64,000 nt of DNA from positions 1,984,001 to 2,048,000 of the forward strand of contig BROI01000001.1 of assembly GCA_027923505.1 (NCBI GenBank), in the 5' to 3' direction. This DNA is from Mayamaea pseudoterrestris (taxonomy: Eukaryota). The position numbers and the translations under genes are program-made. This document shows positions 47,387 to 61,169 of the stretch, one piece after another (positions within the stretch are counted from its first letter, which is position 1; each line of letters opens with the position of its first letter). The notes under the pieces were generated by a model. The model had not been told where the DNA came from, did no database searches, and saw only the letters and a list, made by a program, of their open reading frames with translations.

Positions 47387-48418
47387 TTACTCACTTGCTA
47401 AGCTTAGCTGAGCCGCATCGTCAGCAAGCGCTGCAATTTCCAGTTGATCTGGCTTGGCACACTGGCCAGGCGACGACACACTGTCCTGTATCAGTTTCAG
47501 CATGCCTCGTCCAAGCGCTTGTCCAATATGAAAAAAGGTATCTGCTCTCCCATTGTAGTGGAATGGTTGATTGAACGTTTCCTCGCCAAACACCATGTAT
47601 TCGGCCGTCTTGACGAAGATGGTATTCCCCCGAAACTCTTTCTGCTGCGTCACGTCGTATTGATGCTTGCGAAAGGCCAAGACGCGCGGCGTCCATCGCT
47701 TGGACGGATCCATGAGCTCCGATGGTCCATGTTGACCCAGTTCGCCAATGACAAACGGCAGCGACGGAACATGTAAATCGTGGCGCACGTCGCGCACCAA
47801 ATTGGCAAGGTTTGTTTCGTACTCGTTCACCGTTGGCCACGTGAGCATGTCGTTCCAGCCTTGGAACCAAACAAAGCCGTCCAGCTGGTATCCAACAGTG
47901 TCCGTGTAGTTTGGAATGATGCTGGCAAGATTCGCCAATGTATCTCTTACTTCCTGAATCATTTTTCGATAGAATAGTCCAACTTGACCCTCCTCGGGTT
48001 GCTGATGCTTGTCTAGAGGCGGCATTCCAGACGACGGCGGTCGAAAGTCGACGGATAGACTCTTGCCTCCCCAAGCCGTCTTGATGAGTAAAATGATTGG
48101 TGATTCATGATCATCATTGTCGGCATCATCAAACGCATCGGCAATCGTCCAGCCAAACATGAGCTCTGGTCCAAAGCAATTCTTGGCGGCATAGCCAGGA
48201 GCTACAGTCAGCTTGCCGACTGTTTCTTCATTCTTGATGTAAACATTGTCTCGCACCCAAAAGGAGTTGGTGTTTTCGTTCCACAAGTTGGTGCGATACT
48301 CGTTGGGAGTTGTTGTACCATGCTCCTTGTTGTCAATGAGCTGGTGCAAGTGCTTGACAGAACCCATGCCCACCATGTTGGACTGGCCGGCTAGAATGTA
48401 GATTTTGATTGGTGCCAT
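47387..48418 (-). CDS. Sialate O-acetylesterase-like SGNH hydrolase (SASA/DUF303)
   Basis: YILAGQSNMVG, FGPELMFG, LIKTAWGGKSL..DFRPPS, FVWFQGWND, LPFVIGEL and FHYNG; ATG at 48418. Confidence 0.88.
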   Translation of the reverse strand: MAPIKIYILAGQSNMVGMGSVKHLHQLIDNKEHGTTTPNEYRTNLWNENTNSFWVRDNVYIKNEETVGKLTVAPGYAAKNCFGPELMFGWTIADAFDDADNDDHESPIILLIKTAWGGKSLSVDFRPPSSGMPPLDKHQQPEEGQVGLFYRKMIQEVRDTLANLASIIPNYTDTVGYQLDGFVWFQGWNDMLTWPTVNEYETNLANLVRDVRHDLHVPSLPFVIGELGQHGPSELMDPSKRWTPRVLAFRKHQYDVTQQKEFRGNTIFVKTAEYMVFGEETFNQPFHYNGRADTFFHIGQALGRGMLKLIQDSVSSPGQCAKPDQLEIAALADDAAQLSLASE

Positions 48419-48669
48419 ATTGTTGCGAGTGCTTGTCGTTATTAGCAAGCGGATGGAATAACCATGTTCAATGAAGCAAGAGCAAGATGCCTTTCGCTTT
48501 TCTTTTCGAACAAGGCGTGACACGAATCTTTTAGTACCGGTAAGACGAGTCGATCCGGTACACAGCGTCCGTCATTCGTCCGTTCAAGGCGGCAACCTCA
48601 CATCACGATGAATCCAAACGTTCATTCGTTCGCAGCAAACAACAAACAAAGCGAAACTTACTATTAACC

Positions 48670-49395
48670 ATGCCGCCCCGACCAAACGAAGATGAAGTCG
48701 AAGACGAGGAGGAGGCCGATGTTGCGGCCATGCTTGATCTAGGCAAGAAGAAGAAGAAAAAGAAGAAGAAGGAATCGGATACAGCAGGAACATCTGCAGA
48801 CGGCACCAAAGCATCATCAACCACCAGCGCCACTGACTCTTCGGGACAGCGCTTGCTACTGGAGCAGCAGGATAAGGAGCAGGAACTCTTGGACGGACCA
48901 GCGGCTGACTACACTTACGAAGACTTGCTGGATCGCGTCGCCGCCTTGCTGCAAGCCAATAATCCCGACTTGGTGGAAAAGAAGCGCACGCGCATCAAGC
49001 CTCCCCAGCTCCAGTTGCTGAGCAGTAAAAAGACGTTGTGGATCAACTTTCAGGAAATTTGTACCATGATGCAGCGAGACTCGCAGCACGTGTTTGCCTT
49101 TTTCATGGCGGAACTTGGAACGGAAGGTAGCTTGGATGGTAACCAGCGTCTCATCATTCGCGGCAAGTACGTGGCCAAGTACATTGAGTCGCTGCTACGT
49201 AAATATGTGGTCGAGTATGTGACTTGCGAAATGTGTCGGTCGCCGAATACGGATCTAGTCAAGGATCAAGGCAGTCGATTGTACTTTTGCAACTGCCGCG
49301 ACTGTGGTTCCTCGCGCAGTGTGGCGCCGATTCGCAGTGGATACCATGCGACCAGTCGGGCGGATCGGCGGGCGGCGCGAAACGCAAAGGGATAG
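48670..49395 (+). CDS. EIF2S2: Eukaryotic translation initiation factor 2 beta subunit
   Basis: Poly-Lys box, YTYEDLLDR, KKTLWINF, FFMAELGTEGSLDG, and the zinc ribbon EYVTCEMCRSPNT...CRDCGSSRSV. Confidence 0.95.
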   Translation: MPPRPNEDEVEDEEEADVAAMLDLGKKKKKKKKKESDTAGTSADGTKASSTTSATDSSGQRLLLEQQDKEQELLDGPAADYTYEDLLDRVAALLQANNPDLVEKKRTRIKPPQLQLLSSKKTLWINFQEICTMMQRDSQHVFAFFMAELGTEGSLDGNQRLIIRGKYVAKYIESLLRKYVVEYVTCEMCRSPNTDLVKDQGSRLYFCNCRDCGSSRSVAPIRSGYHATSRADRRAARNAKG

Positions 49396-49514
49396 TTGGT
49401 TTATTGACATTGATGACCTTAAGTTGTTGACAGAGTTTCCTTTTACGTACTTGCTAATTTGACTTTCGTTTTCGTACAGTAGTTCGCTTATACGACACTA
49501 GTACGATCATTAGT

Positions 49515-49533
49515 GGTAGGATATATCCGGACA
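49515..49533. repeat. 19-bp direct repeat GGTAGGATATATCCGGACA, left copy
   Basis: Identical copy at 59833-59851; contains the palindromes GGATATATCC and TCCGGA. Confidence 0.85.
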
Positions 49534-49892
49534 GCACTGCCGGACATGCTTCACGACATTGATTGGAAGGGCTGCCACTGCACGAGTCTATGACTTTGCA
49601 CACTGTCTTTGACAAAATGACCGTGTCGTTCTGAGACATCACCAACCTTTTACACTCGAGTGAAGCAGTTACTGTACATAGCTATGGAAAGAATTGACTC
49701 AATACTACGTGTCCTTTTATTGAATTTGTAGTTTTTTCCTGACTCAGACCATGCAGCAAGATTCCACAGCTTAGATTGATGGTAACTGGCTATGAAGGAC
49801 CCCAAAGTGCTCGGTGGTGTGGTTATTGCCTACTGTTGGAGTAGCAGTTGTGTTAGCGAGTGCGAAGCGAGGAATGACCTTTGTACCTACAC

Positions 49893-52800
49893 GTGGCAAT
49901 GGCTAAAAAGACAATCACATCCATAGTTTGATTGGTTCAGATTTATAGACTGTGCTGTTGTTCTATTTGGCCCATCTACTCCCACAGCTTTCCCAAAACT
50001 TGAGCTTGCCAGGTTTGTTTGGGTTTGTTGGCCTCATTGATACTTTGGCTGAAGGTGGCAATGTTTGTAATTGACAGAGATGCCCAGCGGACCTGGTGGT
50101 GTGGTGTGGCGACGTATGGGATACTTAGCTATGTGGAAGCAAGCATATTTATTACCCAAACTTGAAGGATTTGCATGACCACCAAGGTTGCAGAGGTTGA
50201 TTGACCTTACCAAAAGCATAATGATAGGTGAGAATGCTTCAAATGATGCTGATAGTCAAAGTTCTGTGGTTGCTGCCGCTGCCGCTGCGGGACATACAGT
50301 CGCACAGAATACAGCGTATCTACTCCTGTTTTGCCAGGAAAACATGAGTTGTCCAACATTGTAAGTGTTATGAGTACCTCATGTATACCTTGTCTAAAGG
50401 TGGCAATGGCTAAAAAGACAATCACATCCATAGTTTGATTGGTTCAGATTTATAGACTGTGCTGTTTTTCTATTTGGCCCATCTACTCCCACAGCTTTCC
50501 CAAAACTTGAGCTTCCCAGGTTTGTTTGGGTTTGTTGGCCTCATTGATACTTTGGCTGAAGGTGGCAATGTTTGTAATTGATGGGGATGCCCAGCGGACC
50601 TGGTGGTGTGGTGTGGCGACGTACGGGATACTTAGCTATGTGGAAGCAAGCATGTCTATTCCACAAACTTGATGGATTTGCATGACCACCAAGGTTGCAG
50701 AGGTTGATTGACCTTACCAAAAGCATAATGAAAGGTGGGAATGCTTTGAATGATGGGGATCACCAAAGTTCTGTGGGTGCTGCCGCTGCTGCTGCTGCGT
50801 GACATACAGTCGCACGGAATACAGCGTATCTACTCCTGTTTTGCCAGGAAAACATGAGTTGTCCAACATTGTAAGTGCTATAAGTTCCTCATGTATACCT
50901 TGTCTAAAGGTGGCAATGGCTAAAAAGACAATCACATCCATAGTTTGATTGGTTTGGATTTATAGACTGTGCTGTTGTTCTATTTGGCCCATCTACTCCC
51001 ACAGCTTTCCCAAAACTTGAGCTTGCCAGGTTTGTTTGGGTTTGTTGGCCTCATTGATACTTTGGCTGAAGGTGGCAATGTTTGTAATTGATGGGGATGC
51101 CCAGCGGACCTGGTGGTGTGGTGTGGCGACGTACGGGATACTTAGCTATGTGGAAGCAAGCATATCTACTCCCAAAACTTGTAGGATTTGCATGACCACC
51201 AAGGTTGCAGAGGTTGATTGACCTTACCAAAAGCATAATGATAGGTGGGAATGCTTCAAATGATGGGGATCACCAAAGTTCTGTGGGTGCTGCCGCTGCT
51301 GCTGCTGCGTGACATACAGTCGCACGGAATACAGCGTATCTACTCCTGTTTTGCCAGGAAAACATGAGTTGTCCAACATTGTAAGTGCTATAAGTTCCTC
51401 ATGTATACCTTGTCTAAAGGTGGCAATGGCTAAAAAGACAATCACATCCATAGTTTGATTGGTTCGGATTTATAGACTGTGCTGTTGTCTCTATTTGGCC
51501 CATCTACTCCCACAGCTTTCCCAAAACTTGAGCTTGCCAGGTTTGTTTGGGTTTGTTGGCCTCATTGATACTTTGGCTGAAGGTGGCAATGTTTGTAATT
51601 GATGGGGATGCCCAGCGGACCTGGTGGTGTGGTGTGGCGACGTACGGGATACTTAGCTATGTGGAAGCAAGCATATCTATTCCCAAAACTTGTAGGATTT
51701 GCATGACCACCAAGGTTGCAGAGGTTGATTGACCTTACCAAAAGCATAATGAAAGGTGGGAGTGCTTCAAATGATGGGGATCACCAAAGTTCTGTGGGTG
51801 CTGCCGCTGCTGCTGCGTGACATACAGTCGCATGGAATACAGCGTATCTACTCCTGTTTTGCCAGGAAAACATGAGTTGTCCAACATTGTAAGTGCTATA
51901 AGTTCCTCATGTATACCTTGTCTAAAGGTGGCAATGGCTAAAAAGACAATCACATTCATAGTTTGATTGGTTTGGATTTATAGACTGTGCTGTTGTTCTA
52001 TTTAGCGGCCCATCTACTCCCACAGCTTTCCCAAAACTTGAGCTTGCCAGGTTTGTTTGGGTTTGTTGGCCTCATTGATACTTTGGCTGAAGGTGGCAAT
52101 GTTTGTAATTGATGGGGATGCCCAGCGGACCTGGTGGTGTGGTGTGGCGACGTACGGGATACTTAGCTATGTGGAAGCAAGCATATCTACTCCCAAAACT
52201 TGTAGGATTTGCATGACCACCAAGGTTGCAGAGGTTGATTGACCTTACCAAAAGCATAATGATAGGTGGGAATGCTTCAAATGATGGGGATCACCAAAGT
52301 TCTGTGGGTGCTGCCGCTGCTGCTGCGTGACATACAGTCGCACGGAATACAGCGTATCTACTCCTGTTTTGCCAGGAAAACATGAGTTGTCCAACATTGT
52401 AAGTGCTATAAGTTCCTCATGTATACCTTGTCTAAAGGTGGCAATGGCTAAAAAGGCAATCACATCCATAGTTTGATTGGTTCGGATTTATAGACTGTGC
52501 TGTTGTTCTATTTTTGATCTTACCAAAAGCATAATGATAGGTGAGAATGCTTCAAATGATGCTGATAGTCAAAGTTCTGTGGTTGCTGCCGCTGCCGCTG
52601 CGGGACATACAGTCGCACAGAATACAGCGTATCTACTCCTGTTTTGCCAGGAAAACATGAGTTGTCCAACATTGTAAGTGTTATGAGTACCTCATGTATA
52701 CCTTGTCTAAAGGTGGCAATGGCTAAAAAGACAATCACATCCATAGTTTGATTGGTTCAGATTTATAGACTGTGCTGTTTTTCTATTTGGCCCATCTACT

Positions 52801-55800
52801 CCCACAGCTTTCCCAAAACTTGAGCTTCCCAGGTTTGTTTGGGTTTGTTGGCCTCATTGATACTTTGGCTGAAGGTGGCAATGTTTGTAATTGATGGGGA
52901 TGCCCAGCGGACCTGGTGGTGTGGTGTGGCGACGTACGGGATACTTAGCTATGTGGAAGCAAGCATGTCTATTCCACAAACTTGATGGATTTGCATGACC
53001 ACCAAGGTTGCAGAGGTTGATTGACCTTACCAAAAGCATAATGAAAGGTGGGAATGCTTTGAATGATGGGGATCACCAAAGTTCTGTGGGTGCTGCCGCT
53101 GCTGCTGCTGCGTGACATACAGTCGCACGGAATACAGCGTATCTACTCCTGTTTTGCCAGGAAAACATGAGTTGTCCAACATTGTAAGTGCTATAAGTTC
53201 CTCATGTATACCTTGTCTAAAGGTGGCAATGGCTAAAAAGACAATCACATCCATAGTTTGATTGGTTTGGATTTATAGACTGTGCTGTTGTTCTATTTGG
53301 CCCATCTACTCCCACAGCTTTCCCAAAACTTGAGCTTGCCAGGTTTGTTTGGGTTTGTTGGCCTCATTGATACTTTGGCTGAAGGTGGCAATGTTTGTAA
53401 TTGATGGGGATGCCCAGCGGACCTGGTGGTGTGGTGTGGCGACGTACGGGATACTTAGCTATGTGGAAGCAAGCATATCTACTCCCAAAACTTGTAGGAT
53501 TTGCATGACCACCAAGGTTGCAGAGGTTGATTGACCTTACCAAAAGCATAATGATAGGTGGGAATGCTTCAAATGATGGGGATCACCAAAGTTCTGTGGG
53601 TGCTGCCGCTGCTGCTGCTGCGTGACATACAGTCGCACGGAATACAGCGTATCTACTCCTGTTTTGCCAGGAAAACATGAGTTGTCCAACATTGTAAGTG
53701 CTATAAGTTCCTCATGTATACCTTGTCTAAAGGTGGCAATGGCTAAAAAGACAATCACATCCATAGTTTGATTGGTTCGGATTTATAGACTGTGCTGTTG
53801 TCTCTATTTGGCCCATCTACTCCCACAGCTTTCCCAAAACTTGAGCTTGCCAGGTTTGTTTGGGTTTGTTGGCCTCATTGATACTTTGGCTGAAGGTGGC
53901 AATGTTTGTAATTGATGGGGATGCCCAGCGGACCTGGTGGTGTGGTGTGGCGACGTACGGGATACTTAGCTATGTGGAAGCAAGCATATCTATTCCCAAA
54001 ACTTGTAGGATTTGCATGACCACCAAGGTTGCAGAGGTTGATTGACCTTACCAAAAGCATAATGAAAGGTGGGAGTGCTTCAAATGATGGGGATCACCAA
54101 AGTTCTGTGGGTGCTGCCGCTGCTGCTGCGTGACATACAGTCGCATGGAATACAGCGTATCTACTCCTGTTTTGCCAGGAAAACATGAGTTGTCCAACAT
54201 TGTAAGTGCTATAAGTTCCTCATGTATACCTTGTCTAAAGGTGGCAATGGCTAAAAAGACAATCACATTCATAGTTTGATTGGTTTGGATTTATAGACTG
54301 TGCTGTTGTTCTATTTAGCGGCCCATCTACTCCCACAGCTTTCCCAAAACTTGAGCTTGCCAGGTTTGTTTGGGTTTGTTGGCCTCATTGATACTTTGGC
54401 TGAAGGTGGCAATGTTTGTAATTGATGGGGATGCCCAGCGGACCTGGTGGTGTGGTGTGGCGACGTACGGGATACTTAGCTATGTGGAAGCAAGCATATC
54501 TACTCCCAAAACTTGTAGGATTTGCATGACCACCAAGGTTGCAGAGGTTGATTGACCTTACCAAAAGCATAATGATAGGTGGGAATGCTTCAAATGATGG
54601 GGATCACCAAAGTTCTGTGGGTGCTGCCGCTGCTGCTGCGTGACATACAGTCGCACGGAATACAGCGTATCTACTCCTGTTTTGCCAGGAAAACATGAGT
54701 TGTCCAACATTGTAAGTGCTATAAGTTCCTCATGTATACCTTGTCTAAAGGTGGCAATGGCTAAAAAGGCAATCACATCCATAGTTTGATTGGTTCGGAT
54801 TTATAGACTGTGCTGTTGTTCTATTTGGCCCATCTACTCCCACAGCTTTCCCAAAACTTGAGCTTGCCAGGTTTGTTTGGGTTTGTTGGCCTCATTGATA
54901 CTTTGGCTGAAGGTGGCAATGTTTGTAATTGATGGGGATGCCCAGCGGACCTGGTGGTGTGGTGTGGCGACGTATGGGATACTTAGCTATGTGGAAGCAA
55001 GCATATTTATTACCCAAACTTGAAGGATTTGCATGACCACCAAGGTTGCAGAGGTTGATTGACCTTACCAAAAGCATAATGATAGGTGGGAATGCTTCAA
55101 ATGATGGGGATCACCAAAGTTCTGTGGGTGCTGCCGCTGCTGCTGCGTGACATACAGTCGCACGGAATACAGCGTATCTACTCCTGTTTTGCCAGGAAAA
55201 CATGAGTTGTCCAACATTGTAAGTGTTATGAGTACCTCATGTATACCTTGTCTAAAGGTGGCAATGGCTAAAAAGACAATCACATCCATAGTTTGATTGG
55301 TTTGGATTTATAGACTGTGCTGTTGTTCTATTTAGTGGCCCATCTACTCCCACAGCTTTCCCAAAACTTGAGCTTGCCAGGTTTGTTTGGGTTTGTTGGC
55401 CTCATTGATACTTTGGCTGAAGGTGGCAATGTTTGTAATTGATGGGGATGCCCAGCGGACCTGGTGGTGTAGTGTGGCGATGTATGGGATACTTAGCTAT
55501 GTGGAAGCAAGCATATCTATTCCCAAAACTTGTAGGATTTGCATGACCACCAAGGTTGCAGAGGTTGATTGACCTTACCAAAAGCATAATGATAGGTGGG
55601 AATGCTTCAAATGATGGGGATCACCAAAGTTCTGTGGGTGCTGCCGCTGCTGCTGCTGCGTGACATACAGTCGCACGGAATACAGCGTATCTACTCCTGT
55701 TTTGCCAGGAAAACATGAGTTGTCCAACATTGTAAGTGCTATAAGTTCCTCATGTATACCTTGTCTAAAGGTGGCAATGGCTAAAAAGGCAATCACATCC

Positions 55801-58800
55801 ATAGTTTGATTGGTTTGGATTTATAGACTGTGCTGTTGTTCTATTTAGCGGCCCATCTACTCCCACAGCTTTCCCAAAACTTGAGCTTGCCAGGTTTGTT
55901 TGGGTTTGTTGGCCTCATTGATACTTTGGCTGAAGGTGGCAATGTTTGTAATTGATGGGGATGCCCAGCGGACCTGGTGGTGTGGTGTGGCAACGTACGG
56001 GATACTTAGCTATGTGGAAGCCAGCATATCTATTCCCAAAACTTGTAGGATTTGCATGACCGCCAAGGTTGCAGAGGTTGATTGACCTTACCAAAAGCAT
56101 AATGAAAGGTGGGAATGCTTCAAATGATGGGGATCACCAAAGTTCTGTGGGTGCTGCCGCTGCTGCTGCTGCGTGACATACAGTCGCACGGAATACAGCC
56201 TATCTACTCCTGTTTTGCCAGGAAAACATGAGTTGTCCAACATTGTAAGTGTCATAGTACCTCATGTATACCTTGTCTAAAGGTGGCAATGGCTAAAAAG
56301 ACAATCACATCCATAGTTTGATTGGTTCGGATTTATAGACTGTGCTGTTGTTCTATTTGGCCCATCTACTTCCAAAGCTTTCCCACAACTTGAGCTTGCC
56401 AGGTGTGTTTGGGTTTGTTGGCCTCATTGATATCTTAACTGAAGGTGGCAATGTTTGTAATTGATGGGGATGCCCAGCGGACCTGGTGGTGTGGTGTGGC
56501 GGTGTACGGGATACTTAGCTATGTGGAAGCAAGCATGTCTACTCCCAAAACTTGTAGGATTTGCATGACCACCAAGGTTGCAGAGGTTGATTGACCTTAC
56601 CAAAAGCATAATGAAAGGTGGGAATGCTTCAAATGATGGGGATCACCAAAGTTCTGTGGGTGCTGCTGCTGCTGCTGCAAGACATACAGTCGCATGGAAT
56701 ACAGCGTATCTACTCTTGTTTTGCCAGGAAAACATGAGTTGTCCAACATTGTAAGTGTTATAGGTTCCTCATGTATACCTTGTCTTAAGGTGGCAATGGC
56801 TAAAAAGACAATCACATCCAGAGTTTGATAGGTTCAGATTTATAGACTGTGCTGTTGTTCTTTTTAGCGGCCCATCTACTCCCACAGCGTTCCCAAAACT
56901 TAAGCTTGCCAGGTTTGTTTGGGTTTGTTGGCCTCATTGATATTTTGGCTGAAGGTGGCAATGTTTGTAATTGATGGGGATGCCCAGCGGACCTGGTGGT
57001 GTGGTGTGGCGATGTATGGGATACTTAGCTATGTGGAAGCAAGCATATCTACTCCCAAAACTTGTAGGATTTGCATGACCACCAAGGTTGCAGAGGTTGA
57101 TTGACCTTACCAAAAGCATAATGAAAGGTGGGAATGCTTCAAATGATGCGGATAGCCAAAGTTCTGTGGTTGCTGCTGCTGCTGGTGCGTGACCTACAGT
57201 CGCACGGAATACAGCGTATCTACTCCTGTTTTGCCAGGAAAACATGAGTTGTCCAACATTGTAAGTATTATAAGTTCCTCATGTAACCTTGTCTAAAGGT
57301 ACGTATGGGATACTTAGCTATGTGGAAGCAAGCATATTTATTACCCAAACTTGAAGGATTTGCATGACCACCAAGGTTGCAGAGGTTGATTGACCTTACC
57401 AAAAGCATAATGATAGGTGGGAATGCTTCAAATGATGGGGATCACCAAAGTTCTGTGGGTGCTGCCGCTGCTGCTGCGTGACATACAGTCGCACGGAATA
57501 CAGCGTATCTACTCCTGTTTTGCCAGGAAAACATGAGTTGTCCAACATTGTAAGTGTTATGAGTACCTCATGTATACCTTGTCTAAAGGTGGCAATGGCT
57601 AAAAAGACAATCACATCCATAGTTTGATTGGTTTGGATTTATAGACTGTGCTGTTGTTCTATTTAGTGGCCCATCTACTCCCACAGCTTTCCCAAAACTT
57701 GAGCTTGCCAGGTTTGTTTGGGTTTGTTGGCCTCATTGATACTTTGGCTGAAGGTGGCAATGTTTGTAATTGATGGGGATGCCCAGCGGACCTGGTGGTG
57801 TAGTGTGGCGATGTATGGGATACTTAGCTATGTGGAAGCAAGCATATCTATTCCCAAAACTTGTAGGATTTGCATGACCACCAAGGTTGCAGAGGTTGAT
57901 TGACCTTACCAAAAGCATAATGATAGGTGGGAATGCTTCAAATGATGGGGATCACCAAAGTTCTGTGGGTGCTGCCGCTGCTGCTGCTGCGTGACATACA
58001 GTCGCACGGAATACAGCGTATCTACTCCTGTTTTGCCAGGAAAACATGAGTTGTCCAACATTGTAAGTGCTATAAGTTCCTCATGTATACCTTGTCTAAA
58101 GGTGGCAATGGCTAAAAAGGCAATCACATCCATAGTTTGATTGGTTTGGATTTATAGACTGTGCTGTTGTTCTATTTAGCGGCCCATCTACTCCCACAGC
58201 TTTCCCAAAACTTGAGCTTGCCAGGTTTGTTTGGGTTTGTTGGCCTCATTGATACTTTGGCTGAAGGTGGCAATGTTTGTAATTGATGGGGATGCCCAGC
58301 GGACCTGGTGGTGTGGTGTGGCAACGTACGGGATACTTAGCTATGTGGAAGCCAGCATATCTATTCCCAAAACTTGTAGGATTTGCATGACCGCCAAGGT
58401 TGCAGAGGTTGATTGACCTTACCAAAAGCATAATGAAAGGTGGGAATGCTTCAAATGATGGGGATCACCAAAGTTCTGTGGGTGCTGCCGCTGCTGCTGC
58501 TGCGTGACATACAGTCGCACGGAATACAGCCTATCTACTCCTGTTTTGCCAGGAAAACATGAGTTGTCCAACATTGTAAGTGTCATAGTACCTCATGTAT
58601 ACCTTGTCTAAAGGTGGCAATGGCTAAAAAGACAATCACATCCATAGTTTGATTGGTTCGGATTTATAGACTGTGCTGTTGTTCTATTTGGCCCATCTAC
58701 TTCCAAAGCTTTCCCACAACTTGAGCTTGCCAGGTGTGTTTGGGTTTGTTGGCCTCATTGATATCTTAACTGAAGGTGGCAATGTTTGTAATTGATGGGG

Positions 58801-59631
58801 ATGCCCAGCGGACCTGGTGGTGTGGTGTGGCGGTGTACGGGATACTTAGCTATGTGGAAGCAAGCATGTCTACTCCCAAAACTTGTAGGATTTGCATGAC
58901 CACCAAGGTTGCAGAGGTTGATTGACCTTACCAAAAGCATAATGAAAGGTGGGAATGCTTCAAATGATGGGGATCACCAAAGTTCTGTGGGTGCTGCTGC
59001 TGCTGCTGCAAGACATACAGTCGCATGGAATACAGCGTATCTACTCTTGTTTTGCCAGGAAAACATGAGTTGTCCAACATTGTAAGTGTTATAGGTTCCT
59101 CATGTATACCTTGTCTTAAGGTGGCAATGGCTAAAAAGACAATCACATCCAGAGTTTGATAGGTTCAGATTTATAGACTGTGCTGTTGTTCTTTTTAGCG
59201 GCCCATCTACTCCCACAGCGTTCCCAAAACTTAAGCTTGCCAGGTTTGTTTGGGTTTGTTGGCCTCATTGATATTTTGGCTGAAGGTGGCAATGTTTGTA
59301 ATTGATGGGGATGCCCAGCGGACCTGGTGGTGTGGTGTGGCGATGTATGGGATACTTAGCTATGTGGAAGCAAGCATATCTACTCCCAAAACTTGTAGGA
59401 TTTGCATGACCACCAAGGTTGCAGAGGTTGATTGACCTTACCAAAAGCATAATGAAAGGTGGGAATGCTTCAAATGATGCGGATAGCCAAAGTTCTGTGG
59501 TTGCTGCTGCTGCTGGTGCGTGACCTACAGTCGCACGGAATACAGCGTATCTACTCCTGTTTTGCCAGGAAAACATGAGTTGTCCAACATTGTAAGTATT
59601 ATAAGTTCCTCATGTAACCTTGTCTAAAGGT
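49893..59631. repeat. Tandem satellite array: 18 full ~510-bp units + 2 partial units, each full unit a trimer of ~170-bp monomers
   Basis: Unit starts (gtggcaatggctaaaaag) at 49893, 50400, 50910, 51420, 51928, 52438 (partial), 52713, 53223, 53733, 54241, 54751, 55258, 55771, 56283, 56790, ~57300 (partial), 57589, 58102, 58614 and 59121. Full units are 507-513 bp. Confidence 0.97.
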
Positions 59632-59832
59632 ACTGTAGCACTGTGTAGCTGGTTACTGTGTGGATGTTTGCCCTCCCAAACAACTGATGCTATGTGTGAG
59701 CTGGGAATGATTGTTTTGCACCAGTCTCACTGCATCCGTGTCCCCAATGATAGCCAGAACAGAATTCATGGAACAAGATTATTGTTGGTAGTCGTTGAAG
59801 GCCACACACTGTAGCACAATGGATTTGGTTGC

Positions 59833-59851
59833 GGTAGGATATATCCGGACA
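59833..59851. repeat. 19-bp direct repeat GGTAGGATATATCCGGACA, right copy
   Basis: Identical to 49515-49533, same orientation, on the other side of the array. Confidence 0.85.
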
Positions 59852-60473
59852 TGTCTCAGGATATTTCTTGGAATACTGCAGCTGCGACATTGATGATGTC
59901 ATGGTTGTGGTGCATGCAATGACCCCTAGGGTAAATGTGTTAGCTATCCCAAACACATTGCTTTACTTTAGTAGTATGCTCTCATAGAGCCATTGATTAC
60001 CACTCAATTACTGCAATTTCTAGCCTCTTCTTCTGTTCCATATAGACTTAAATTGTTGGCACCGACCCATTAAATGGTTGCTTTGAAGGCCAGTGTTGTT
60101 CTTACTGTGTCTACTGTTTGACAGTCTTTGTGTGAGCGGAGCACGTAAAAGTCTTTGCAGGCTTTGTGACACCATTGATCCTACCACCTCCCCGCCCCGC
60201 GAATGTGTTTTGCTTTTGTTTACTTGTTTGATGTCGCCGCGTTACAGTATCGGGAGCTACGGAGGAGACAAGACGTAAATGAGTGACGAGTTGGAAGATG
60301 ATGAAAGATCCAAGCCTTCATTCGTGATTGGGTCTTGCAATGACTGGAATTGTGACCGCGCCATCGCGCCCTCGGCAAATCGAGGACGATCACTTCACAT
60401 GCATTTATCACATTACTTGTTAAGACGCACACTGACCTAAATTATATTGAATAACTCACTACTACTGTCACAT

Positions 60474-61169
60474 ATGAGTGGAGAACGATCAATCGAGGAG
60501 ATTCAGGCTCGAATCGCTGCCTTGAAAGCCACGATTGCCGAAGCGGAAGGCAAGCCAGTTGCCAATATTGAATCAACGAACACTAGCATCAGCAACCAAG
60601 GCAATAACAGCAGCAATGCACCAGCAACAAAACTCTTTACACCAAAGCTAGCCGTCGATCAAGTTAGTACAAAATCGGATCCGCGTCACGCGGTCATTCA
60701 GTACGCCAAACCGCAAGGCATTGACGTTGTTCCAACTCCACTGAAATCACAAAACGACGACGTTGACTACAGCTACGCCAAGGACGGATCCGTCTACTAC
60801 ACAGACAAGCTTGAAAAGCAAAGAAACGTTTGGGAGAAACCTGCCTGGGCCATGGGAACAAAACCACTCAAAACGTCGGAATTTTCGGAGCAGCTGCGCA
60901 GTGGCGACGACTTGGCCCGACCAATCACCTTTTTCAATGGCCGCGACGAGTCGGAAAGTGCCGAGGCAAACGGCATGATTGTCAATCTGTCCGGCAGCAG
61001 CGGCAATCGCATCAAGCCAGTCGATAGCAAGATTGAATGGACAAAGCCGGCGTGGAGTGAAAAGGTGAATTTGCGAGAAACCAACAATGGAGAAAAGCTA
61101 CATCAAGGACGAGAGATTGCCAAGCCGATCGGAGGCATTCGGGCGCCGGAGCGAGTGGCTGGATCGTAA
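60474..61169 (+). CDS. Hypothetical protein with two WxKPAW repeats
   Basis: ATG at 60474; N-terminal coiled coil; repeats WEKPAWAMGTKPLKTSEFSEQLRSGDDLARPI and WTKPAWSEKVNLRETNNGEKLHQGREIAKPI. Confidence 0.75.
   Translation: MSGERSIEEIQARIAALKATIAEAEGKPVANIESTNTSISNQGNNSSNAPATKLFTPKLAVDQVSTKSDPRHAVIQYAKPQGIDVVPTPLKSQNDDVDYSYAKDGSVYYTDKLEKQRNVWEKPAWAMGTKPLKTSEFSEQLRSGDDLARPITFFNGRDESESAEANGMIVNLSGSSGNRIKPVDSKIEWTKPAWSEKVNLRETNNGEKLHQGREIAKPIGGIRAPERVAGS

Follow-up and report, generated by a model that had tools for sequence, protein, structure and literature searches.

Results

Organization of the tandem array

We analyzed a 64-kb stretch of the genome of the diatom Mayamaea pseudoterrestris (GenBank assembly GCA_027923505.1, contig BROI01000001.1, positions 1,984,001 to 2,048,000 of the forward strand), referred to here as the window and numbered from its first base. 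A head-to-tail tandem array spans positions 49893 to 59631 (9.7 kb) of this window and holds approximately 19.1 unit lengths, with units of 507 to 513 bp, each of which comprises three monomers of about 170 bp (Table 1). Tandem monomers of roughly constant length, diverged from each other within near-identical units and lacking coding capacity, make this array satellite DNA with higher-order repeat organization. A first-pass annotation of the same DNA had proposed such a hierarchy and had interpreted the array as a heterochromatic satellite, possibly a centromere or a nucleosome-phasing locus.

The 510-bp period dominates the array. Among the lags separating matching 12-mers between 49 and 61 kb, 510 was the commonest (2758 matches), followed by 2331 (2322 matches) and 2313 (2297 matches), and a repeat search returned 18 to 20 copies at a spacing of 507 to 513 bp, along with two irregular spacings that measured 782/799 or 275/289 bp, depending on the repeat family. 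The 17 in-register units are 92 to 100% alike, with a mean of 96.3% between neighbors and approximately 92 to 93% for the most distant pairs, so that the near-identical trimers of about 510 bp postulated in the first-pass annotation are borne out. The most diverged units are the first (unit 1), units 13/16, and the last (unit 17), at 92 to 95%, a pattern typical of arrays with a homogenized interior. The GC content of the array is 45%, with a minimum of 0.41 over 500 bp, and no further match to the unit was found elsewhere in the 64-kb window.

Two short boxes mark the monomers. All 52 occurrences of AGGTGG[CG]AATG in the window lie within positions 50053 to 59457, spaced by 162 to 175 bp apart from three intervals of 345 bp that each span a mutated box and two junction spacings of 275 and 289 bp. 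The second box, [AG]TCTA[CT]TCC, occurs 50 times in the window and likewise always inside the array (50/50). Both motifs and their spacings had been given exactly by the first-pass annotation. With a looser definition of the box, 56 monomers follow each other in a strict three-type order, interrupted solely by two irregular pieces, of 103 and 289 bp, and copies of one monomer type share a mean identity of 95 to 97%. In monomer 3, a GCN trinucleotide tract (positions 50770 to 50800, at the same phase in each unit) differs among the copies and thus forms a microsatellite nested in the satellite.

Similarity between the three monomer types is much weaker. Pairwise global alignments scored above shuffled sequences, with z values of 2.6 (types 1 and 2), 5.4 (types 1 and 3), and 4.8 (types 2 and 3). 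A three-way alignment contained 52 invariant columns out of 174, compared to 22.6 +/- 5.9 in 200 shuffles (largest, 36). After exclusion of both boxes, 34 invariant columns remained, compared to 20.6 +/- 4.9 in the shuffles (largest, 35). In nhmmer searches between types, monomers 3 and 1 matched each other at an E value of only 0.36 to 0.77, and a profile of monomer 2 detected no other type at E <= 10. The nominal identity between types, 53 to 58%, is close to the 49 to 54% obtained for unrelated flanking sequence under the same scoring and is therefore unfit as a measure. Tandem Repeats Finder (TRF), suggested earlier as a way to confirm the sub-period, was run with a longest period of 500 and for this reason missed the 510-bp period above its limit, reporting only rows of 275 and 289 bp, which represent junction repeats; the sub-period became visible through the boxes and the alignments instead. 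The 170-bp sub-period is real and is carried mainly by two boxes of fixed phase, with faint similarity elsewhere. The view of three highly diverged, nucleosome-sized monomers therefore holds with respect to their order, length, and above-shuffle homology, with the reservation that this homology is weak. To judge from these comparisons, the sub-repeats look like an old triplication that decayed almost to background.

Table 1. Positions of the satellite array, its components, and neighboring features in the window
Feature	Position	Strand	Remarks
Whole satellite array	49893..59631	.	17 in-register units of 507 to 513 bp plus two junction-disrupted stretches
Example three-monomer unit	50398..50907		
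Monomer 1 example (162/165-bp type)	50398..50559	+	Starts with box AGGTGGCAATG; ATCTACTCC 83 bp later
Monomer 2 example (173-bp type)	50560..50732	+	
Monomer 3 example (172/175-bp type)	50733..50907	+	Contains short variable GCN tract
Duplication 1, first copy (period 2313)	50201..52513	+	50206 to 52513 identical to 52519 to 54826
Duplication 1, second copy	52514..54826	+	Out-of-register junction 52513/52514, giving the 275-bp spacing
Duplication 2, first copy (period 2331)	54970..57300	+	54970 to 57302 identical to 57301 to 59633; 2-bp AC microhomology
Duplication 2, second copy	57301..59631	+	Junction 57300/57301, giving the 289-bp spacing
CpG-depleted domain (putatively methylated)	49534..60150	.	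Array plus flanks of ~360 bp (left) and ~520 bp (right)
Exact 19-bp direct repeat, left copy	49515..49533	+	360 bp left of array; unexplained
Exact 19-bp direct repeat, right copy	59833..59851	+	200 bp right of array
Left neighbor gene, translation initiation factor eIF2 beta	48670..49395	+	Ends 497 bp before array
Right neighbor open reading frame, 231 aa, no Pfam family	60474..61169	+	Starts 842 bp after array

Two perfect duplications of 2.3 kb

The array had also been described as arranged in blocks of about 2.3 kb. Such blocks exist, albeit not as a periodic level: they are two one-off duplications, and there is no third period. Both are perfect tandem duplications, out of register with the 510-bp unit and joined with 0 to 2 bp of microhomology, and because their junctions are out of register, they give rise to the 275- and 289-bp spacings. 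The junction of duplication 1 involves five bases, at one position of which the copies differ. The right breakpoint of duplication 2 coincides with the boundary between array and flank, so the copied segment is the last 2.3 kb of the array. The two duplications are nearly equal in size (2313 and 2331 bp; about 4.5 units) despite different breakpoints, and this shared size is unexplained.

CpG depletion of the array and its near flanks

The observed-to-expected ratio of CpG is 0.34 in the array and 1.09 in the rest of the window, a threefold depletion, whereas TpG (1.52) and CpA (1.40) are elevated in the array compared to 1.19. In windows of 2 kb, the CpG ratio ranges from 0.30 to 0.38 in the five that lie wholly inside the array and from 0.97 to 1.30 in the other 27, and one unit contains 9 CpG dinucleotides, compared to 25.9 expected. 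Upon removal of the second copies of both perfect duplications, transition variants were present at 9 of 20 CpG positions and at 29 of 487 other positions (Fisher P = 2.7e-6), rendering CpG positions 7 to 8 times more variable; at one site, CG, TG, and CA occur alongside each other. The depletion reaches a few hundred base pairs into either flank (Table 1) and ends before the neighboring genes, which have a normal CpG content.

From the CpG depletion, the excess of TpG and CpA, and the variability of CpG positions, we infer the footprint of long-standing cytosine methylation, and by this mutational footprint the array would qualify as a CG-methylated repeat island. The heterochromatic nature attributed to the array in the first-pass annotation thus gains backing from a strong methylation-decay footprint restricted to the array and about 0.35 to 0.5 kb on each side. 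Across positions 1 to 49395 of the window, the CpG ratio stays near 1.1, and methylation decay appears limited to the satellite.

Array edges and search for related sequences

Both edges of the array are sharp and fall at one identical point of the unit, sharing the two bases GT. The left edge reads ...CCTACAC followed by GTGGCAATGG, the right edge reads ...CTAAAG followed by GTACTGTAGC, and a unit junction inside the array reads CTAAAGGTGGCAATGG. Edges that are in phase and share GT argue for repeated duplication of one resident 510-bp segment, as the ends of an imported array would be expected to agree in phase to within a few bases in no more than about one case in a hundred. This arrangement points to amplification of the array on the spot from one such segment.

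A pooled monomer profile, used to search for decayed monomers, yielded no match in the flanks with nhmmer at E <= 10, and alignments of the flanks to the monomers stayed at background (z from -1.4 to 1.5). Judged by these searches, the flanks are not decayed monomers, and a near-match to the box at position 59699 was accordingly treated as a chance occurrence.

A word-level comparison with the other examined windows of the same genome revealed no look-alike of the satellite. In metagenome contigs, the three-box pattern was found at no locus and the two-box pattern was found at 83 loci, with one match each; we consider the latter to be chance occurrences, since a BLAST search with two units gave nothing better than 25 bases at an E value of 0.03. 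Contigs from public runs were also compared to the stretch from 47500 to 53300; none of the runs listed as containing the sequence was an RNA run. Over the array, contig depth adds up to tens of times that of the flanks, a value that gives no copy number because the runs consist of contigs and those fitting in multiple places are placed unevenly. Two runs labeled as other organisms, from the study that also supplied the best-matching run, contain short satellite pieces at a depth of 1 to 23 and leave the flanks uncovered; they may reflect carry-over or a relative and were counted as no evidence.

Sequences flanking the array

An exact 19-bp direct repeat, for which no matches would be expected, brackets the array (Table 1). 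It is partly palindromic and occurs nowhere else in the window. Similarity between its surroundings extends past the 19-mer for about 350 bp under permissive scoring, where 1 of 300 shuffles reaches the score, whereas under strict scoring, 91 of 300 shuffles do so. A reading of the flanks as long terminal repeats is thus unsupported, with the similarity being carried almost wholly by the 19-mer.

In two of the public runs, extra contigs with a likeness of at least 85% pile up on positions 49440 to 49827 and diverge from the window at 49581 to 49654, which suggests that this stretch is a short dispersed repeat. Contigs in both runs skip 36 bp (positions 49651 to 49688) and 78 bp (positions 49763 to 49842), representing either alleles or paralogous copies.

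Noncoding status and gene neighborhood

All six frames of the array are interrupted by 80 to 178 stop codons each, with a longest open stretch of 114 codons. These counts rule out a coding repeat, even though the unit lengths of 507, 510, and 513 bp are all multiples of three. No open reading frame (ORF) of at least 100 aa was found on the plus strand of the array, and neither of two 103-aa ORFs on its minus strand matched a Pfam family. A search of Rfam returned nothing for the array at E <= 1, and ARAGORN detected no tRNA gene. Between positions 49396 and 60473, there is no ATG-initiated ORF of at least 150 aa, and all other gaps between neighboring listed ORFs of this size in the window are shorter than 1 kb; the earlier statement that this is the sole gene-free stretch of about 11 kb is thereby confirmed.

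The left neighbor of the array encodes eIF2 beta, for which the best named relatives, at 73% identity, are from the raphid pennate diatoms Amphora and Entomoneis. ORFs for an M48 peptidase and a SASA esterase are located farther to the left, and a sulfotransferase-like ORF lies beyond the 231-aa ORF on the right. Positions 1 to 49395 of the window are very gene dense, with 36 ATG-initiated ORFs of at least 150 aa in 49 kb.

Discussion

Taken together, the array is probably a noncoding satellite island that was born at this locus and silenced by CG methylation, and it most likely represents a selfish or neutral sequence, not a chromosome-segregation element. In the sequence of events that we envisage, an ancient tandem repeat of about 170 bp would have decayed to the two boxes and faint similarity elsewhere before one 510-bp stretch was duplicated in situ by an event mediated by GT microhomology. 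Unequal exchange or replication slippage might then have expanded it to about 19 copies, with partial homogenization by gene conversion. Growth may have continued by illegitimate segmental duplications, the latest of which would have duplicated the final 2.3 kb as far as the flank. Recognition and CG methylation of the repeat, as of transposable elements (TEs) and repeats of other diatoms, could have spread a few hundred bases into the flanks and stopped short of the neighboring genes, and deamination of 5-methylcytosine would have eroded the CpG dinucleotides.

Isolated, highly CG-methylated islands of TEs and repeats in diatom genomes are described in the excerpted part of a methylation study (PMC9998398). 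The array resembles those islands as an isolated repeat block in gene-dense surroundings of normal CpG content, with a mutational footprint limited to the repeat and its near flanks. By the account in that excerpt, the islands consist mainly of transposons and are often near telomeres, whereas the array consists purely of tandem satellite sequence and lies in the interior of the chromosome, with its methylation deduced from the footprint (PMC9998398).

Several observations weigh against this interpretation. The argument for methylation is indirect, being drawn from the mutational footprint in about 510 bp of independent sequence. A neutral view leaves unexplained why each of the three monomer types retains both boxes, although the remaining sequence has decayed to background. 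Two public runs, from two studies, include contigs with repeat variants that are missing in the assembled array and whose closest matches in the window have 2 mismatches in 21 and 2 mismatches in 24 bases; there must thus be further copies, either on the other haplotype or at other loci, an outcome unexpected for a purely local family. In addition, the bracketing 19-bp repeat and the extra contigs on the left flank hint at a link to a dispersed element, and the perfect duplications could be assembly errors.

With regard to the last point, an assembly artifact would affect only the third level of the hierarchy, the true array being a plain run of 510-bp units. The two duplications show no difference over 2308 and 2333 bp, whereas ordinary units differ by 1 to 8%, their lengths are nearly equal, and a single odd base stands at one of the junctions, all of which might be expected from a faulty assembly. 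However, their junctions lie out of register with 0 to 2 bp of microhomology, and one of them reuses the true boundary between array and flank, as in illegitimate tandem duplication and unlike an in-register collapse or expansion by an assembler. No listed run contig from the compared stretch (47500 to 53300) bridges a duplication junction, so that the reads leave the matter undecided. We regard an artifact as rather unlikely and the perfect 2.3-kb duplications as probably genuine and very recent illegitimate tandem duplications. A different origin of the whole array, as the internal tandem array of, or a satellite derived from, a dispersed nonautonomous mobile element with direct terminal repeats and copies elsewhere, would account for the exact 19-mer on both sides, for the weak 350-bp similarity seen under permissive scoring, and for the run contigs that accumulate on the left flank and break off there, as well as for the repeat variants that are absent from the window. 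The limits of the CpG-depleted domain (about 49534 to 60150) also roughly match the outer limits of the two copies of the 19-mer, but methylation spreading from the array explains the depleted flanks equally well. Such an element would have no room for a coding part; the interval from 49396 to 60473 is devoid of long ORFs, and neither a transposon protein nor recognizable TE sequence was detected in it, including the 103-aa ORF without a Pfam match. Moreover, no inverted termini were found, neither flank has a second copy in the window, and strict scoring abolishes the similarity past the 19-mer. In view of this evidence, we consider a mobile-element origin improbable.

The idea of a satellite-type centromere, with the array as the CENH3-bound region of a 3-Mb chromosome and with boxes that are CENP-B-box-like or position nucleosomes, draws on the fact that no other part of the gene-dense window lacks long ORFs over about 11 kb, on monomers of nucleosomal length whose units form a higher-order repeat, on two boxes conserved far more than the remaining monomer sequence, and on the interior site, with no less than 1.19 Mb between the array and the left end of the 2,994,718-bp contig. 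However, the array is small and young, with in-phase edges suggesting a recent local origin, it has no look-alike in the other examined windows of this genome, and genes with normal CpG content are only 0.5 to 0.84 kb away. It shows no dyad symmetry, with two short imperfect inverted repeats only and a DNA fold z of 0.17. Likewise, there is no 10-bp periodicity of WW dinucleotides (power of 1.10, compared to a shuffle mean of 1.42), and the proposed nucleosome-phasing locus thus receives no support from dinucleotide periodicity. As for base composition, the only experimentally defined diatom centromeres, those of Phaeodactylum tricornutum, have a GC content below 33% over about 500 bp and are free of repeats, according to the excerpted part of the study, and the rule derived there includes clusters of 100-bp windows at <=32% GC (10.1101/096016). 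The array, at a GC content of 0.45, is not a centromere of this type: it fails the GC rule (lowest value, 0.41) and, being wholly a tandem repeat, also the absence of repeats. None of its 100-bp windows is at or below 32% GC, two such windows occur in the whole 64 kb, and nothing else in the window qualifies as a low-GC centromere. For Fistulifera solaris, the excerpt considered gives centromere candidates at 36 to 42% GC, none of which appears to contain the highly repeated elements typical elsewhere (10.1101/2021.11.10.468027). Thus, as far as these partial accounts extend, the centromeric regions of P. tricornutum (10.1101/096016) and F. solaris (10.1101/2021.11.10.468027) share with the array their occurrence in diatoms, kilobase scale, interior position, and lack of genes, but are low in GC with at most small-scale repeats in F. 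solaris, whereas the array has 45% GC and is wholly repetitive. In the full-text literature, the coverage of which leaves out most subscription journals, we found neither satellite higher-order repeats nor satellite centromeres for diatoms. A centromeric role of the array appears very unlikely on this sequence evidence. If it were nevertheless true, the locus would provide the first satellite-based, higher-order-repeat centromeres in diatoms, and the 11-bp and 9-bp boxes would be binding sites of a CENP-B-like protein spaced one nucleosome apart. Given that diatom centromeres are otherwise known only as short, low-GC, repeat-free stretches, such a switch to satellites would matter for the design of artificial chromosomes.

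Primate alpha satellite consists of head-to-tail monomers of about 170 bp, arranged as diverged monomers in units that are about 95 to 100% alike, with one short box per monomer. The M. pseudoterrestris array shares with these higher-order repeats the monomer length, the near-identical units, the recurrent boxes, and the more diverged units at the edges. It differs in extent, with 9.7 kb compared to hundreds of kilobases to megabases for alpha satellite arrays, and in its monomers, which are diverged almost to background and far less alike than alpha satellite monomers within a unit. There is no sequence relation between the two, and the array is known from sequence alone and from a single locus so far, with genes within 1 kb. 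Closer by lineage, the excerpted report on a long-read assembly of the oomycete Phytophthora parasitica describes the satellite families PpSat1 and PpSat2, the function of which is left open there (PMC7290008). These are stramenopile satellites like the array, differing from it in lineage and in sequence, and are compared here by their description only (PMC7290008).

Viewed as a satellite island of probably local origin, the locus offers a tidy case of satellite birth, in which a decayed old repeat would have been reamplified in place, leaving readable traces of its founding junction and of the two most recent steps of growth. The array thus probably represents a locally amplified and methylated satellite in a lineage in which such repeats have hardly been described.

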